Shown here one piece after another: positions 12,272-32,626 of a stretch of DNA of 33,417 nucleotides; within the stretch, counting starts at the first letter, position 1; each line of letters starts with the position of its first letter. The DNA is from Lentisphaeria bacterium (GTDB taxonomy: Bacteria; Verrucomicrobiota; Lentisphaeria; Victivallales; UBA1829): assembly GCA_019408975.1 (NCBI GenBank), contig DXVA01000001.1, positions 1 to 33,417 on the forward strand, in the 5' to 3' direction. The position numbers and the translations under genes are program-made. The notes below the pieces were generated by a model that was not told the origin of the DNA, ran no database searches, and was given only the letters and a program-made list of their open reading frames with translations.

Positions 12272-13330
12272 TCAGCAGCTTTCCCGCCGGATCAGCCGAA
12301 GTGTCCCGGACAGATGGAAATTGCGGAATGAATCGCGGTCCAGCGCTTCACTGAAGCGGCGCAGGCAGAGACGTCCGTTCTGGTCGTTGCAAAGATCAAT
12401 GACGGTCAATGCCGGATGCAGCTGTTCGGTGGCAGGCAGGTTGTCCACCCCGGTAACGGCGACTGTATCCGGCACGCGCAGTCCGAGCATACGTTCCAAC
12501 GTCTGAACCGCTTCCATCGCGATGGTGCTGACTGTGCAGCTGAACACATCGAACGAACCGGCAAGTTCGCGCAGTTCCTCCAGGTTTTCGTTCCCATAGC
12601 CATGCCAGTTCCTGGAATCGGCGGAGATGCCGTGTTTACGGCATTCCTCCGCGAGAAGACGGGTGCGGTTGTCCGAGATGGGGAAATTGCCGCCGAGGAT
12701 CAGGACACGCCGGAACCCGCGCCGGGCGTAGTATTCCGCCAGCAAAGCCGCGATTTGCGTTTCATCATGGTAGACCGTGGAGCAGCCGGCAGGTGTTTTT
12801 CCGTAAATATTGGGTCCGTAGAACAGACAGGGCAGTTTCTGCCGCCGTAGCTCCTCCTGCGCCCGGAGCAGATTGTCATGTCCCCGGAAGAAGATTACAC
12901 CGGCCGCTTCGGGGTAGATCATTTTCACGTTGTCGAGATTGTGAAAGAAATCATCCAGCTTGACGAGCGCGGGCTCGCAGGAGAGATCGGCTGTAACCGA
13001 TTCATCCAGAGCCCCCAGGAGAAAGTCGAAATAATCATCCCGCTTCCACGTGTGCAGTTCACCGTAACCGGGGACGATCAGAATCCGTCCTTTGCGGCTG
13101 CGTGGCGAGACGAATGTGCCTTGTCCGTGGCGGCGGTAGATGATCTTTTCCGCAACCAGGTTATTCAATGCCTTGCGCACCGTGCCGACGCTGAGGTTGT
13201 ATTCCTGTGCCAGCTGCGACTCGGACGGCAGCCGGTCGTGCCGTTTCAGGCGGTGTTCGGAGATATAGCGTTTTACTTCATTCTCCAGTTTGCGGTAGAC
13301 TGGCAGCTGTTCCCAAAGTTTCCGGTCCAT
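12272..13330 (-). CDS. AraR-type chimeric regulator: GntR-family winged-HTH fused to a LacI/PBP1-type sugar-sensor domain
   Basis: The N-terminus LPSESQLAQEYNLSVGTVRKALNNLVAEKIIYRRHGQGTFV is a GntR wHTH. The rest resembles a LacI-type periplasmic-binding fold (..VLILGG.., ..VPDTVAVTGVDN..). Start 13330 follows AGGAAAGG; the listed start is 13363. It is divergent from the prepilin-like/lyase operon. Confidence 0.8.
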   Translation of the reverse strand: MDRKLWEQLPVYRKLENEVKRYISEHRLKRHDRLPSESQLAQEYNLSVGTVRKALNNLVAEKIIYRRHGQGTFVSPRSRKGRILIVPGYGELHTWKRDDYFDFLLGALDESVTADLSCEPALVKLDDFFHNLDNVKMIYPEAAGVIFFRGHDNLLRAQEELRRQKLPCLFYGPNIYGKTPAGCSTVYHDETQIAALLAEYYARRGFRRVLILGGNFPISDNRTRLLAEECRKHGISADSRNWHGYGNENLEELRELAGSFDVFSCTVSTIAMEAVQTLERMLGLRVPDTVAVTGVDNLPATEQLHPALTVIDLCNDQNGRLCLRRFSEALDRDSFRNFHLSGTLRLIRRESC

Positions 13331-13424
13331 AAATGCCTTTCCTGTTTTGTGGAAAGATAGCACTCCTGTAACGAAGTTGCCAGTTCAAAATATGATTTTT
13401 TCGGCTTTTTTCAAGGTTTGCCTC

Positions 13425-13452
13425 TTGACAAAACCGCATTTGTATTTATAAT
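13425..13452 (+). promoter_or_regulatory. Near-consensus sigma70 promoter facing the prepilin-like/heparinase-like operon
   Basis: TTGACA (13425-13430), 16-nt spacer, TATAAT (13447-13452). The predicted TSS near 13459 leaves a leader of about 535 nt before GTG 13995. Confidence 0.55.
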
Positions 13453-13684
13453 ATTGAACTATACTCCTATATAGAAGTTGAGAATGTAATGAAAACGAAT
13501 GGAACAGGAAAGGGAGAAAAATGAAGCGGAACTCGGATTGGAGCGGGCTGCAAAACATGAAAGGCTGTCCGGAGTATCCGGACAGGATGAAACTGCGGGA
13601 TTGCGTACAGAACAGAATGCCGGTCTTTATGGAAGACAGTGGCGCAGTGGAAGATCTGCTCTGCGGACGTCTGAGCAGCAGTGT

Positions 13685-13810
13685 TTCTTTCTTCATTCAA
13701 TTGTTAAATTGTTCTAATGTTCGCTTGTTCAAATGTTTCCCGGTGCCCTGTTTTTCTGTTCCTGCTTCGAGGGTGAAAATAAGATTTTTCACTCTGATAG
13801 AGCTCTTCAT
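13685..13810 (+). repeat. Copy 1 of a duplicated 5' module (leader plus first ~12 codons of a prepilin-like gene), decayed
   Basis: 13685-13730 is identical over 46 bp to 13889-13934. The homology resumes at ..TTCGAGGGTGAAAATAAGATTTTTCACTCTGATAGAGCT.., which encodes [11 protein letters not shown] and then diverges (FMRKSCK..). Confidence 0.9.
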
Positions 13811-13888
13811 GAGGAAAAGCTGTAAAATTGGTATTTCATTCCGGTATCAGGATAGTACAGGACGCTGCTATTCCCCTGATTTTGCTTC

Positions 13889-14032
13889 TTCTTTCTTCAT
13901 TCAATTGTTAAATTGTTCTAATGTTCGCTTGTTCGATTGTTTTCCCGTTCCTTCTTCCTTCCGTGTCCCTTGCTCGATATTCTTACTTCGCAGGGTGAAA
14001 ACAAGAATTTTCACCCTGATAGAGCTTCTCAT
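13889..14032 (+). repeat. Copy 2 of the duplicated 5' module, attached to the intact prepilin-like gene
   Basis: The 46-bp perfect core 13889-13934 lies 204 bp downstream of copy 1. It is followed by a pyrimidine-rich stretch and CGCAGGGTGAAAACAAGAATTTTCACCCTGATAGAGCT, encoding [11 protein letters not shown]. The module is 18 nt longer than copy 1. Confidence 0.9.
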
Positions 14033-14735
14033 TGTGATTTCTATCATCGCGATTCTTGCGGCAATGCTGCTGCCTGCCTTGAATAAAGCCAGAGAAACGG
14101 CACGTTCGATTTCCTGCACTAATAATCTTTCCCAGGTCGGTAAAGCCCAGCACATGTATTCCAGCGATTATCAGGAGTGGATTGTGCCTATGGTGCAGGG
14201 AAATTATTACTGGCATCACCGACTTTCCGGAATAGATGACAACGGCGTCAGAATATCGGTTTTCAGCAACTATGGAATTACGTTCAGGGGACGTACCAGA
14301 ACGGAAGGAACTCTGGTGTGTCCATCCGAGACCGTGCCGTTTTCCGATAAAGCGGAGTCCGGGTTCCGTTTTTCTCATTATGGGGCAAATGCCTGTGCAT
14401 TGGGGTATTCCGGCTTTTTTTCCTCCGGCAGCAAATATTATTCCCGTAAAATTTCGGCAATTGTCCAGCCGACGATTGCGATATTTGCCGGAGACAACGT
14501 GAGACGCACCGATCCCATTATCAATTGGGCGCAGTTTTTCGCCTATCGTCATGGCAGCCCTGATTCTAGGACCAGCATGGCTGCCGTCGTGGGGACAGAT
14601 ATTCCTTTCGGGAAAGGACGCGCCAATTCCGTGTATTTTGACGGTCATGCGGCTCCCCGAACCTTTCTTGAACAGAAAGCGGAGAATTATGATCTGACTG
14701 CGGGAATTGATATCAATAAGGGGGTGGCATTATGA
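13995..14735 (+). CDS. Prepilin-type N-terminal domain protein of the PVC DUF1559 / H-X9-DG paralog family (module A)
   Basis: (V/M)[33 protein letters not shown] is a type IV pilin-like N-terminal helix with Glu at +5. The C-terminal ..YRHG..(insertion)..[10 protein letters not shown] is a variant of H-X9-DG. A GTG start at 13995 is proposed by analogy with paralog B. The ORF is open back to ATG 13809 and ATG 13521 (AGGGAG SD), so a gene finder may call 13521..14735. Confidence 0.75.
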
Positions 14736-21934: not shown

Positions 21935-22705
21935 TCATTCTCCTTTCCCGTTGAATGGATAATAATTGCCGGGATAAAGGTAGCGGTTGGGATTTACCGT
22001 TGTTTTTAGTTGTTCTCTCCGAATGGTTGCGACATGGGAATCCATAAAGAAAAGATTCAGGTTCCTGGAGCTGTCATGCCGCAGTTTGAATGCTCCGCTG
22101 AGTCCGAAATCGGCGGAATCCCCTATCCACCCCAGAATAGAAGGATATCTTACCGTTTCATATCGCATATAGAATCTGTCTTCAATGCCGTAGTCGAAAG
22201 CCCCATTGTTGCGTGCCTCATACGTTGTGCTTACCATATAATCGGAAACCGGATGCCATTTTGTGAAACCATGCTCTTTTTCAGTGGGACACAACATAAT
22301 GCCTTTCGGCGGTGTCTTCACATCAAAAGTTTCATATTTCCATGGCAGATAGCCCAGCAGAAAAGTGGGGTTTTTGCCTTTTCCCAGCATATAAAGCCAT
22401 GAATCTGTCGTACTGTATCCGGAACCTCCCGTTTTACGGAACATATTGGAACCTGCACTCCAGCCTTTGTAGTCATTGGCATAGGCAGTGTAGCCATAGC
22501 CTATCTGCTTCAAATTGGTTGAACATAAAACTACATGGCTTTTCTCTTTTGCTTTGTTCAAGGCCGGCAGTAAAAGTGCCGCGAGAATCGCGATGATCGC
22601 AACTACGATGAGAAGCTCTATCAATGTGAAAATCCATGTTTTCACCTGCAATGCCTGGCTTGGCAAACGGGAGGCATTACTCGTCATGACGGAAACTCTG
22701 TTCAT
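21935..22705 (-). CDS. Prepilin-type N-terminal domain protein of the DUF1559 / H-X9-DG paralog family (module B)
   Basis: ..[35 protein letters not shown]; the C-terminal [19 protein letters not shown] is an H-X11-DS variant. ATG 22705 has the strong SD GAGAGGAG. An alternative GTG at 22645 gives a 5-aa leader like module A. Confidence 0.8.
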
Positions 22706-22756: not shown

Positions 22757-25591
22757 TTATTTTTCGCTCATCAGGAAAACATCTTTATAGAGACCGCCTT
22801 TACCTGCGGCATCAGTGACTTTGACGGTCAGCTGATGTACTCCCGGGCTCATATTTTCCGGAAGTCTGATTATGAACGGTTCCCGCCACAGGGTTGCGGC
22901 ATCGCCCTTATGATGCCCGCCGATGTATTTGCCATCAAGCCAGAGCCAGGCGCGTTCGTCTGCTCCGCCGAAATATAAAGAGTACCGTTTCCCGGATTTT
23001 ATTTCAATTGTTTTTCGATACCACGCCGTGCCGTCAAAAATGTATCCTTGATCCTCCCAGAAATTACCGCTTTTTATCGTATCCCATTTTGAGTCATCCA
23101 GATTGGGTGCAAACCATTTTTCTTTATCGCCGGCCGCTGCAAAATCAGTTTTGAATTTCCACGGATTCAAGATGTTTTCCAGATTGTATTTTTCTTTCAG
23201 GCTGCGGAAAACTGTTGCATTGTCCAGCAGTTGTTTGAATATGGTAAAACGATTGGTTCCATAAAATCCCTCCTTATGCCCTCCGGGAAGAATCTTCTGC
23301 GAAATCAGATGATCCAGCATTTTGCGTATCTCTTTCAGCTGTGATATGATTGAATCGTAACTTTTCTGATCGGGGGAATCATAAAAGTGGTTTGCAGATT
23401 TTATGAAACTGGAATGCAGCTTCAGGTATGCCCAGTATTTCTTCTCTCTTTCCAGGGCGCATAAGATGCGTTTATCGTGTCCGGCTTGCTTCTCTGCCTG
23501 TTTCAGCATATCTTTCATTGTCCGGAGCTGTTCTTCGCTGAACACGGGCACAGTAAGATATCCGTATCTTATATGGGCAGACGGTGCGGCAAGAGTCTGT
23601 TCCAATAGGCTGTAATAGTTTTTCATGAGATTGCCCGCCGGTCCATAGAGTTTATTGAAATAGTCATTCTTCAAAAGCATGTCGTTGAACCAGGGATTCC
23701 ATGCCAGGCGCGCACCGAGATAATGCTGAAAGGCATCTGCTCCGGCCCATCCATCCATAGTTTCTTCACAGATCCCTTGAATATTAAGAAGATTGAGAAA
23801 ACGGAAGTGTTCCGTATGGGACGCAACAGTTCCAAAGGTGGGGGATTCGGAAAAACACGGATTAAGATAGTGGTAGGTATAAACAATAATACGTCCGGAT
23901 ACCAGTTTGTTCCATTCAAGGAGGGCCGGATAATTTGACGCTTCGCAAAATAGAATCCAGACGCCCTCCGCCGGTTTTACCTTCTTCGGAGGTTCTTTTG
24001 TCCATGTATAGGCAAATATCAGAACCGATTTGCCGGGGTTTTTCCCGCGGATTCTGCGTGAAAGCACATTTGCCATATACATCTGCTGGTCTGTCGCTGT
24101 AATGACATTACTGCCGTCGGGACACAATGCGAGGCATTTTTCACACTGGCACCAAAGGCAGAACCCATCTTCCTGCATCAACGGGAAGTAGAATAAATCA
24201 GGATGTTTCCTGAAATATTCAACGGCAATTTCCGACAGCTTATTTATGACTTCCGGGTTTGTATTGCATATCTGTGCTGATTTTGCACGATATTTTCCGG
24301 TTGCTTTATCATAACAGAACCAGGCGGGATGATCTTTGAAATATTTTGAGGGTGGCAAATGCTGGTGATAAAAGCATTGTCCGTGAAGCGGAATGCTGCC
24401 GCCGCGGGTGTCATAAAATGTTTTTATGCTTTCGTCAGCGTTTCCCGTTTTCGGGAGCCTTCCGAGTTCTACATTAAAGCGGTTTTTGATTGTCCAGTCT
24501 GCCATATCCCAGATATGCTGTTTGAATCCTGCTGTTCTGCTGTCTGCGCAATAATGCGGGCGGCGATAGGAAAAGCATGGTGCCTCCGAGTCTTTGAAAA
24601 GCGGGATTTTCAGGTTCGGATTGAAGGGGACGATTTCTCCCCATTCAAATGGTGCAAACCAGCGGATTCCTGCCGCCTTTTCCAGAAAATCATAGACGGC
24701 ATAGAGCAATGCCCGTGGAGAATTGCCAACAATGGAGACCTTTTTCCCGTCGATGCTTTCTGAATGAAAAGCCTCTTCCGGCTTTGCAGGTATGACTTTG
24801 AGTTCGAATGATTTCCCGCCGGGGGTATTTTTTGAGTTGACGGGAAATATTTTACCTGTTGCCATGCCTAGATATTTTGCCAATTCCCCTGCCGCAAAAA
24901 TTTCTGTTTTTGTTGCATTTTTTCCTATCGTAATGGTAAAGCCGTCCAGAGAAACGGCATCTTTCCTGATTGTTTCCTTAAATGCGTAAGGAACGGATTT
25001 TTCATGTCGGCTGATTGCCGAAAGGTGTTTTCGGATTTCTCCTGTGTCTGAATTTTTGTTGGTGAGTCGTAGATTTCTGAATGCAAATTGTACATTTTCC
25101 CAGGCACAGAAACTGATTGCGTGAAGGGTTCCTTGTGAAGCAAGACTGCTGCTTCCTTTGGTGCCTCTGACAAAATAAAAGAAATGATTCAGGATTGCCG
25201 TTGCTCTGGCGCCGCTTTTTAATTCAAGAGTAACTGTCTTCCATTGAGGCGTGATTGTAAATATTGAATCAAATTGCGCATGATCATGTTTCGACAGGTT
25301 GCGGAATAATGTCAGGCAGAGGTTGTGATTTCTGTTGTCAAGAGACTTGATTTCCAGTTCTATATACTTATAATCGTTCAGCAGATTTCCGGATTTTACA
25401 TCAAACGATATCCAGGCGGATGATTTTCCCTGGGGGGGACACAGTGCCAATTCATATATTCCCTTCCGACATGCATAACGTCCACGCATGTCGTGAGGAC
25501 CTGCTTTTCCCAGTTTGATCATCCCTTCTGACGCATTGCAGAGAAAGATCGTAAATAATAACGTCGCTAATGCCGGTAAGGTTTTTTTCAT
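22757..25591 (-). CDS. Secreted DUF4838-like putative glycoside hydrolase with a C-terminal GH2-type sugar-binding (galactose-binding-like) domain
   Basis: Signal peptide MKKTLPALATLLFTIFLCNA. GNSPRALLYAVYDFLEKAAGIRWFAP matches the DUF4838/GH20b-like hallmark as I remember it. The C-terminal W..I..GNFWEDQGYIFDGTAWYRKTIEI..RYSLYFGGADERAWLWLDGKYIGGH is the GH2 N-terminal-domain pattern. AAAGGAG SD. Confidence 0.7.
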   Translation of the reverse strand: MKKTLPALATLLFTIFLCNASEGMIKLGKAGPHDMRGRYACRKGIYELALCPPQGKSSAWISFDVKSGNLLNDYKYIELEIKSLDNRNHNLCLTLFRNLSKHDHAQFDSIFTITPQWKTVTLELKSGARATAILNHFFYFVRGTKGSSSLASQGTLHAISFCAWENVQFAFRNLRLTNKNSDTGEIRKHLSAISRHEKSVPYAFKETIRKDAVSLDGFTITIGKNATKTEIFAAGELAKYLGMATGKIFPVNSKNTPGGKSFELKVIPAKPEEAFHSESIDGKKVSIVGNSPRALLYAVYDFLEKAAGIRWFAPFEWGEIVPFNPNLKIPLFKDSEAPCFSYRRPHYCADSRTAGFKQHIWDMADWTIKNRFNVELGRLPKTGNADESIKTFYDTRGGSIPLHGQCFYHQHLPPSKYFKDHPAWFCYDKATGKYRAKSAQICNTNPEVINKLSEIAVEYFRKHPDLFYFPLMQEDGFCLWCQCEKCLALCPDGSNVITATDQQMYMANVLSRRIRGKNPGKSVLIFAYTWTKEPPKKVKPAEGVWILFCEASNYPALLEWNKLVSGRIIVYTYHYLNPCFSESPTFGTVASHTEHFRFLNLLNIQGICEETMDGWAGADAFQHYLGARLAWNPWFNDMLLKNDYFNKLYGPAGNLMKNYYSLLEQTLAAPSAHIRYGYLTVPVFSEEQLRTMKDMLKQAEKQAGHDKRILCALEREKKYWAYLKLHSSFIKSANHFYDSPDQKSYDSIISQLKEIRKMLDHLISQKILPGGHKEGFYGTNRFTIFKQLLDNATVFRSLKEKYNLENILNPWKFKTDFAAAGDKEKWFAPNLDDSKWDTIKSGNFWEDQGYIFDGTAWYRKTIEIKSGKRYSLYFGGADERAWLWLDGKYIGGHHKGDAATLWREPFIIRLPENMSPGVHQLTVKVTDAAGKGGLYKDVFLMSEK

Positions 25592-25648
25592 AGATCGGTT
25601 CTCCTTTTCTGATTGTTCTGCTTAGTGGAATTCTGTTGAAACAATAAT

Positions 25649-25670
25649 TAAAAATTCAATAAGTTTGAAT
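25649..25670 (-). terminator. Weak AT-rich hairpin plus T-run after the LacI-type regulator
   Basis: On the minus strand: ATTCAA-ACTTA-TTGAAT followed by TTTTT, 14 nt after the regulator stop. The stem is only 6 bp with a single G-C pair, so at best it is a leaky attenuator. Confidence 0.25.
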
Positions 25671-31804: not shown

Positions 31805-32626
31805 TCAGTCGTAATCCGCCCAGAAGCTGACATTCCGATTGCTTTGGTTCGATGCAAGGCTGACGGTTGAAATTCTGGTGGAGCCCCAGGATTCCACATG
31901 GCCGTCAACGAATGCGATGTTCGCATAGCTGCCGTGTCTTCGGGCGATGTTGCCCTGATTCATAAGATGCAGCGCCCTGTAATTGTAGGACGTTTCCCCG
32001 TTGTTGCGGACGCAGGAGAAATCGGAAACCAGCACCCGCCACGACGCGCGACGGACATTGCTCATTTTATTGTAGCCGTTGTTGTTGAGCATGGTCAGGC
32101 TGAAACAGAGACGGGCGTTGAAGGAGTAACTGAAATTCGGCATGTTTCCGTCGTTGGGCGCGGTGAATCCTTCGCCGTCGCGTCTTCCCGCCGGACAGAC
32201 TGCGAACGGAGCGACGTCGTGATTCTTTGCCTCGCTGTCGTCGGCGACAATATAATTTTTGCCGTTGTCCACATATGGGAGCAGAGTCTTGTCAAAACGG
32301 CCAGGAGAGACCGGGCCAAAGAAATAGCGCGGTGTGTAGTAGGAGTCCTTCTGGTCGGCGCTGTTGTAGATTTTGCCCCAGCCGTTGAAACAGTCCGCAT
32401 AATTCATCATCGCCAAAGAGAGCGTTTTCAGATTCGACATGCATTGAATACTCTGCGCTTTTTCCCTGGCTTTCGCCAGCGCGGGCAGGAGCAGAGCGGC
32501 AAGTATGGCGATGATTCCGACGACGATGATGAGTTCCAGAATGGTGAAATTCATTCGGAGCCGGTAAAGGGCGGGGATGCGGCGCGGTTGTTGTTCCTGT
32601 TTTTTTTGCGGCATAAGTGAAAGCAT
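31805..32626 (-). CDS. Prepilin-type N-terminal domain protein of the DUF1559 / H-X9-DG paralog family (module C)
   Basis: ..[34 protein letters not shown]; the C-terminal [16 protein letters not shown] is an exact H-X9-DG. ATG 32626 has AAGGAA 7 nt upstream. ATG 32554 (MNFTILEL) is the short-leader alternative. The listed start 32995 runs into the lpxK 3' end and is rejected. Confidence 0.8.

Follow-up and report, generated by a model that had tools for sequence, protein, structure and literature searches.

The tandem module in the window (by which we mean the whole stretch of DNA that was analysed, 33,417 nt) is a 5′-truncated copy followed by a full copy, about 1.6 copies together, of a lineage-specific interspersed repeat of ~222 nt. 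Judged from sequence matches, over a hundred pilin-like gene families carry this unit in a lineage of Lentisphaeria from bird and human gut, and the unit appears to spread between genes by recombination. We consider it probable that the repeat has spread by gene conversion and is tolerated within a translated, probably cleaved-off leader, its terminal hairpin having a role at the RNA level. In the searchable literature on Lentisphaerae and Victivallis pilins, on repeats and on DUF1559/H-X9-DG proteins we did not find a description of this feature.

The duplicated module and its host gene

The module lies within a long ORF behind a single promoter-like site, and two further genes of the same paralog family are found on the opposite strand. 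The features of the window are:

13425..13452, plus strand: sigma-70-like promoter, TTGACA-16-TATAAT, 12/12 matches; heads the transcript with the long ORF
13521..14735, plus strand: ORF of 404 aa, made up of a unique 55-aa N-terminus, a partial unit, a full unit and a mature DUF1559 prepilin-like protein
13685..13808, plus strand: unit copy 1, 5′-truncated (nhmmer, profile positions 120-263), with a relic FTLIEL-F end at 13788-13808
13685..13730, plus strand: 46-mer copy 1, belonging to the core with TGTT every 8 nt
13770..13795, plus strand: hairpin 1, AGGGTGAAAA-TAAGAT-TTTTCACTCT, weakened, with one G.U pair, −11.6 kcal/mol
13809..14030, plus strand: unit copy 2, full length, 222 nt, from ATGAGGAAAAG.. 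to its own FTLIELL codons at 14010-14030 (nhmmer)
13889..13934, plus strand: 46-mer copy 2, with one substitution in the sister strain L001
13991..14018, plus strand: hairpin 2, CAGGGTGAAAA-CAAGAA-TTTTCACCCTG, −16.2 kcal/mol, enclosing a GTG at 13995-13997 and Phe-Thr-Leu codons
14010..14735, plus strand: mature DUF1559 (SBP_bac_10) / N_methyl prepilin-like part, running to the stop (Pfam and codon bias)
21935..22705, minus strand: paralog B, without the unit; it has only the last ~55 nt, including a GTGAAAA..TTTTCAC hairpin (22597-22651)
31805..32554, minus strand: paralog C (MN followed by FTILEL..), with a DUF1559 domain and without the unit

The 46-mer (TTCTTTCTTCATTCAATTGTTAAATTGTTCTAATGTTCGCTTGTTC) has two sites, 13685-13730 and 13889-13934, which are 204 nt apart and show 0 mismatches, just as the earlier note on this DNA had described, and similarity around it reaches 68 nt at 90% identity at that offset. 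Elsewhere in the window there is no further copy, even when 3 mismatches are allowed (0 are expected by chance). The second duplicated block (GGTGAAAA..CTGATAGAGCT) is likewise present twice in the window, at a spacing of 222 nt, and the AGGGTGAAAA..GATAGAGCT block matches over 41 nt at 88% identity with the same offset of 222. Both offsets are divisible by 3, and a single ORF spans both copies; its ATG has AAGGGAG ahead of it, and an identical ORF is called in the sister strain (P0002). The module had also been called promoter-proximal, a description that does not agree with the promoter scan, in which no promoter-like site lies inside the repeat units and the sole sigma-70-like one is that upstream at 13425-13452.

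The sister strain L001 (GCA_964308635.1), an independent assembly, has the two-copy structure too. Misassembly as the source of the two copies is excluded by this identical structure, and with it the collapsed or misassembled repeat that had been named earlier as what might undo the duplication. The window and L001 differ at 10 positions in the 348-nt repeat region (2.9%) and at 7 in the remaining 703 nt of the gene. The 46-mer of copy 2 contains one of these 10 (13910 A>G), and because of this substitution the perfect identity of the 46-mer is not maintained.

Across the family the 46-mer stretch varies and is not the best conserved part of the unit. The core of copy 1 is closest to that of copy 2 (100% over 46 nt, versus 89-95% for other units), whereas its 3′ part is of a different subfamily (the L019/L002 type, at 88-92%), and copy 1 is therefore a mosaic. 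The 46-bp identity had been ascribed either to strong selection on a nucleic-acid signal or to recent conversion. Selection is not supported, given the variation of the stretch across the family. Conversion is, and the explanation that fits the identity best is a short tract of local conversion, or a partial duplication, between neighbouring copies.

The relic FTLIEL at the end of copy 1 bears out the suggestion of an orphan N-terminal module there. We also considered copy 1 as a broken gene and rejected this, since the '..MRKSCK..'-type continuation after its FTLIEL is the conserved beginning of the next unit.

The window protein scores 32.9 bits against PF07596 (DUF1559, SBP_bac_10; cut-off 23.3), and this domain places it among the DUF1559 / H-X9-DG prepilin-like proteins; source databases label its homologs as prepilin-type or H-X9-DG proteins. 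It also has an N-terminal methylation-type motif (FTLIELL and a hydrophobic helix), scoring 19.7 bits against PF07963 (E = 6e-4), just under the cut-off of 21.2, and codons 1-24 of its mature part show a strong third-position bias. The Gly at −1 that defines class III signal peptides is absent, the residue being Ile in the window and I/V/N/S elsewhere. Classical prepilin peptidases need this Gly, and processing of the family is thus putative.

Anatomy and distribution of the repeat unit

From 5′ to 3′, the unit consists of a conserved block (ATGAGGAAAAGTTGTAAAAGTGGTATTTCATTCCGG), a variable G-rich stretch, a TGTT core, a CU-rich tract, a 12-bp hairpin and FTLIELL codons. The 46-mer is located inside the core, in which TGTT recurs every 8 nt, and the 35-nt 5′ block is very well conserved across the family. 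In the consensus fold of the whole unit the only structures are the terminal hairpin, a 7-bp pairing of one end with the other and a small GGAC/GUCC stem. A second self-complementary repeat, of ~290 nt, is nested in some unit arrays.

Unit boundaries were set from a pair of empty and filled alleles (L024 and L015, respectively). The insertion point is exact, between codon 7 (..FTLIELL) and codon 8 (IVIAII..) of prepilin-like genes, such that a carrier gene reads native start and leader, FTLIELL, n units (59-residue segment) and then IVIAIIAIL... Between one and four tandem units per gene stand ahead of many different DUF1559 prepilin-like genes, and every nhmmer unit match sits immediately before the N-terminus of a paralog. 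What had been taken for a local duplication of one gene's 5′ end is instead part of a family-wide repeat.

A protein search with the translated leader alone gave 743 matches, and almost all of the 120 listed among these 743 proteins contain from two to four FTLIEL motifs, usually at a distance of 73-75 aa. When 1.84 billion representative proteins were searched exhaustively, the unit turned up in 144 clusters; these counts cover unit carriers among the paralogs, the loci having mostly been reached via unit-bearing proteins or patterns. At the DNA level, a 34-nt pattern from the unit has 12 exact sites in genome contigs, all in one MAG of Lentisphaeria UBA11452, and a related pattern matched 28 metagenome contigs, many of them from human gut. 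Viral contigs gave 0 matches to the unit pattern. Sequencing runs containing the window sequence (Logan contigs) are bird, chicken, manure, wastewater and gut metagenomes; the contigs end at the repeat, and depth piles up there.

A pattern for other insert families with a shared 5′ end (MRKSCK / VSKTCQ) recovered only the present unit family from the metagenome collection. In L023, a contig from another Lentisphaerae lineage, an unrelated insert lies at the same codon, between two FTLIELL motifs. This different insert is a pointer to a recurrent phenomenon beyond one lineage, and the idea of a wider family of inserts at the FTLIELL codon comes from this one contig.

Reading frame and hairpin

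Pairwise differences among units are 0.262, 0.219 and 0.282 at codon positions 1, 2 and 3, respectively. The corresponding values are 0.125, 0.028 and 0.425 for mature codons 8-24 and 0.012, 0 and 0.224 for the FTLIELL codons. Judged by these values, the pattern of the mature codons is that of a selected protein, whereas that of the units is flat and non-coding-like. The sequence TTCTTACTTCG is common to two unit subfamilies but is read as VLTS in one and as FLLR in the other via a +1/−1 indel pair (a compensated frameshift). The spacing of TGTT is 8 nt in 163 of 264 successive spacings (45 units) and, as 8 is not a multiple of 3, this period has no codon origin.

The frame of the units is nonetheless kept open. 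Length is divisible by 3 in 44 of 45 distinct DNA-defined units, which fall into 11 length classes (132, 192, 204, 207, 210, 216, 219, 222, 225, 288 and 489 nt). Frame 0 is free of stops in 44 of the 45, while frames 1 and 2 contain stops in all 45, and the open frame is also seen for units found by an ORF-blind DNA pattern. In some live genes GGG or GCG stands where the putative GTG start would be, which means that translation must come in from further upstream, and several native starts overlap the end of the preceding gene by 4 nt in the called gene coordinates. From these patterns we infer that ribosomes initiate at the native ATG and read through the units, and that the unit peptide itself is not under selection.

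The open frame might instead mean that the unit encodes a functional pro-domain, e.g. a chaperone-like or regulatory N-terminal extension, and five Cys do recur in it. We find this scarcely credible, as the differences are flat across codon positions, the compensated frameshifts alter the peptide while keeping the nucleotides, the 8-nt periodicity is not a multiple of 3 and the unit has no Pfam match. The unit is also dispensable in near-identical orthologs.

The last 28 nt of the unit fold as a 12-bp stem, (C/G)AGGGTGAAAA(T/C) .. (A/G)TTTTCACCCT(G/C), the 3′ arm of which is made of the Ile-Phe-Thr-Leu codons. Pairing holds in 90.3% of cells among 30 distinct copies, and in three of the pairs both partners have changed (CG/GC, UA/CG, and GC/AU by way of a GU intermediate). 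For covariation the hairpin scores 0.107, compared with 0.071 ± 0.009 when shuffled (0 of 500 shuffles reach 0.107), which is moderate evidence because the copies are mutually related and this inflates covariation. Mean hairpin stability is −14.4 kcal/mol beside live genes and −9.7 kcal/mol in internal relic copies (p = 0.004). In L023, the same codons are covered by a perfect hairpin of 10 bp in the insert and by one of 8 bp in the native leader. Rfam 15 gave no match to the whole window at gathering score, and a search of 13300-14200 by E-value returned chance-level matches only (E about 5).

These results suggest that the hairpin has an RNA-level role in the translation of the live gene. 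Beside the live gene the hairpin is probably kept by selection at the RNA level, and would then occlude or couple translation.

A further step would be to regard the entire unit as a selected cis-regulatory RNA leader that paralogs have recruited, its tandem copies being by-products. The start-occluding hairpin and the CU-rich, TGTT-phased tract, a putative binding site for a protein or the ribosome, would in that case place >100 genes under one control. We think this rather unlikely. The compensatory hairpin pairs and the covariation above shuffled controls argue for it, but kinship of the sequences inflates covariation and the FTL codons hold the 3′ arm of the hairpin constant in any case. 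Good conservation of the 35-nt 5′ block and the family-wide 8-nt phasing of TGTT are also in its favour, although the youth of the copies may equally account for conservation. The greater stability of the hairpin beside live genes than in internal copies, and the formation of hairpins over the same codons by both the unrelated insert and the native leader of L023, are likewise consistent with a regulatory leader. Against these points stand the lack of an Rfam match and the existence of 98%-identical orthologs with and without the unit and of distant orthologs without it, which indicate that the unit is dispensable. Against mere tolerance of the unit, the conserved 5′ block, the TGTT array and the hairpin covariation could mean a selected regulatory element.

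Spread between paralogs and comparison with known systems

Units are 96-99% identical between paralogs of the same genome whose mature domains are only 18-32% identical. The alleles L015 (filled) and L024 (empty) have upstream flanks that are 99.4% identical, share the native leader and belong to orthologs 98% identical to each other, and L015 holds exactly 225 extra nt relative to L024, at the junction between ..GAGCTGCTC and ATCGTG. The empty state, in which ..TTCACATTGATAGAGCTGCTC runs directly into ATCGTGATT, is found in L024 and in clusters P0371 (29 members) and P0373 (120 members). Orthologs at a greater distance (66% and 51% identical) are also empty, which makes insertion the derived state.

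Between the FTLIELL codons of the L015 unit and the native set, 4 of 21 positions are different. Since the two copies of these codons diverge to this extent between flanks that are 99.4% identical, target-site duplication is absent at L015/L024. Five further differences lie in the ~45 nt past the FTLIELL codons, followed by ~2 in the next ~290 nt, and the ~45-nt cluster is a co-conversion tract from a donor paralog.

Copy number changes as well, through recombination of one unit with another. A 210-nt indel with 66-nt direct repeats at its borders separates L019 from L022, and L013 has one chimeric unit in the place where L008 has two. Some mature genes lie behind differing upstream regions, namely L025 (compared with L015/L024), the reciprocal pair L029/L051 and P0007; these differences may be real 5′ swaps, or they may be assembly chimeras of low-coverage metagenome contigs. 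Recombination between the conserved N-terminal segments of paralogs, as the earlier note had proposed, is supported by the pair of empty and filled alleles with its co-conversion tract, by the 210-nt indel between direct repeats and by the mosaic copies.

Under the reading we prefer, i.e. spread by gene conversion, units would move among the conserved N-terminal codons of paralogs by gene conversion or template switching that relies on homology or microhomology, with no transposase of their own. Conversion would find its homology in the conserved N-terminal codons (~70 nt) on one side and in the short FTLIELL match on the other. The homology on the left is ~12-21 nt, which is short for RecA-type recombination. 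Insertion would leave the native start, the leader and the first FTLIELL upstream as a decaying relic and give the mature gene a fresh N-terminus. The host would tolerate the unit since translation from the native start passes through it and the long leader is then cut off at the last FTLIELL; alternatively, the leader might be bypassed from the internal GTG where that codon is present.

A non-autonomous transposon (MITE) would offer a different route, in which a transposase acting in trans, guided by the hairpin or the ends, would direct the unit to the FTLIELL codons. The unit is indeed small, interspersed, near-identical between loci and hairpin-bearing, and its ends form a short inverted repeat, ATGAGGA ... 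TCCTCAT, the 3′ member of which overlaps Leu-Leu-Ile/Met codons. The self-complementary repeat nested in some arrays would also suit such an element. However, the inverted ends measure just 7 nt, no transposase adjoins any unit locus examined, no viral contig carries the unit and, at the site of insertion, target-site duplication is lacking while ~45 nt beyond the unit are co-converted. We therefore regard a MITE as quite improbable.

Still less probable, in our judgment, is local tandem duplication of a promoter-proximal region by shufflon-like, site-specific cassette exchange, the process to which the earlier note had likened the module. The perfect 46-mer shared by the adjacent copies is in its favour, and so are the several mature genes with different 5′ architectures across assemblies (L025 vs L015/L024; L029/L051), but the contigs with 5′ swaps may be assembly chimeras. 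The unit stands ahead of >100 other gene families and has no promoter, the copies are direct rather than inverted, and a Pfam scan of 14 window ORFs found no recombinase domain.

Spread of the unit by conversion would amount to a transposase-free route for repeat DNA to spread inside genes; its landing pad would be the near-identical N-terminal codons of a huge paralog family, and its hiding place the disposable leader. It is possible, and we raise it only tentatively, that cleaved prepilin leaders are a general safe harbour for selfish or regulatory in-frame DNA that brings spare cleavage-site codons and is copied between paralogs by homology. Such DNA would be silent because the peptidase removes its product (a 'protein-level intron'), and it would create hot spots at which the 5′ regions of pseudopilin genes, with their promoters and operon contexts, are exchanged from one locus to another.

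Gene callers give genes of this kind bogus-looking N-termini of 80-250 aa with two or more 'N_methyl' motifs, and the repeat fragments metagenome assemblies, and probably makes chimeras, in a lineage of Lentisphaeria common in bird and human gut. If the hairpin and the TGTT array are functional, >100 pseudopilin genes linked to glycan utilisation would share one post-transcriptional handle, and if the 5′ swaps are real, the unit would drive regulatory reshuffling. The unit also makes testable the maximum length of a prepilin-type leader that can be processed, in a family without the canonical Gly at −1.

Among known systems, class III (type IV prepilin) signal peptides (PF07963) resemble the present proteins in having FTLIELL at the live N-terminus ahead of a hydrophobic helix; the insert occupies the segment that would be cleaved off as leader. 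Known leaders, however, are about 5-30 aa long and end in Gly, whereas those predicted here are 80-250 aa long, contain relic cleavage motifs and have no Gly at −1. The shufflon (Rci, sfx sites, pilV) likewise concerns pilin-type genes and recombination at repeated short sequences, but there C-terminal segments are inverted between inverted 19-bp sites by a tyrosine recombinase; the repeats of the unit are direct and N-terminal, and no recombinase was found among the 14 window ORFs scanned. MITEs, Correia/NEMIS, ERIC and REP/BIME elements fall in the same size range as the unit, likewise occur in many near-identical copies and also have a stable hairpin. The unit differs from them in that it lacks a target-site duplication, has inverted ends of 7 nt and is always intragenic and in frame, and in that its spread appears to depend on homology.

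In Neisseria pilE/pilS there is non-reciprocal copying between pilin-type paralogs via conserved segments, as seems to be the case here. In that system the mature variable region is exchanged and the antigen changed, whereas here a leader insert of non-coding-like sequence spreads among genes that are elsewhere ~20% identical.

A further comparison is with the Rickettsia palindromic elements (RPE), reportedly described by Ogata and colleagues in 2000. Like the unit, RPEs are short interspersed repeats that lie in frame inside coding genes and are translated or tolerated without selection on the peptide. RPEs are palindromic throughout and occur in many unrelated genes, whereas in the unit only the terminal 28 nt form a hairpin and all copies stand before DUF1559 N-termini. 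The unit is further set apart by its one exact codon position, its restriction to one paralog family, the copy of the target motif that it carries and its marks of gene conversion. By analogy, then, the unit seems most like a combination of the two, with Rickettsia palindromic elements joined to gene conversion between pilin paralogs as the closest working likeness.

Genomic setting of the DUF1559 paralogs and an orphan N-terminus

The DUF1559 paralogs, both the three in the window (13521-14735, 21935-22705 and 31805-32554) and those at the related loci L002-L009, belong to small operons that also encode GntR/LacI-type regulators and enzymes acting on glycans (heparinase II/III-like, GH20, GH42, GH123, DUF4838 and sialidase-like), and their cleavage motifs have no Gly at position -1. 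A short orphan N-terminus lies in the window between two such genes:

22757-25591, DUF4838 enzyme gene, one flank of the orphan
25607-25669, minus strand, short orphan prepilin-like N-terminus, ATG..MRKLRSFKLIEFLIIVSTEFH followed by a stop after 21 codons
25684-26988, LacI-type regulator gene, the other flank

This orphan looks like a remnant of the 5' end of another paralog.

Possible exchanges of 5' ends and altered alleles

Contigs L029 and L051, compared with L002/L034 and L012/L030, appear to be reciprocal chimeras, in which the upstream region of one paralog leads through a near-identical unit into the mature gene of the other, and conversely. L025 and L015 carry one mature gene and its downstream flank, which in L025 are preceded by another upstream gene and another leader (MQRRS). 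Either recombination at the unit really produced these arrangements, or they are chimeras created in assembly. The contig of the 'empty' allele, L024, is also missing ~3.3 kb that is present in L015 (L015:1478-4792); the missing segment starts inside the mature gene, resulting in the chimeric protein P0376. A deletion would account for its absence, as would a join made during assembly.

Among the 28 units found by pattern, two (L039:198-600 and L046:7-400) run into unrelated sequence after ..SSFF, with stops in L039. These units are either disrupted copies or parts of chimeric contigs.

A different insert occurs in another Lentisphaerae-type contig (L023:551-880, protein P0237), where one FTLIELL motif is separated from another by ~57 amino acids. 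Over its first ~40 nt the insert is similar to the 5' block of the unit (VSKTCQTG vs MRKSCKSG), and its 3' end is a perfect hairpin, TCGATCAGCG-TTCA-CGCTGATCGA, spanning the FTLIE codons.

Repeats within units and unit arrays

In protein P0005 (JGI), a 60-nt core sub-unit occurs as five tandem repeats within one unit (residues ~40-140), indicating that the TGTT-phased core itself grows by slippage.

Some unit arrays also contain a second in-frame repeat of ~290 nt (L008:10101-10390 and L013:1864-2153), encoding the peptide ..KNITQRISLNLNSELCHDENxFQDFAERVPRHDFVSNAEICRNS... Pieces of it are found upstream of the first units at several loci, and partial minus-strand matches occur in L007, L012, L016-L019 and L022. 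The repeat is similar to its reverse complement (E=1.6e-8) and is therefore palindromic and MITE-like.
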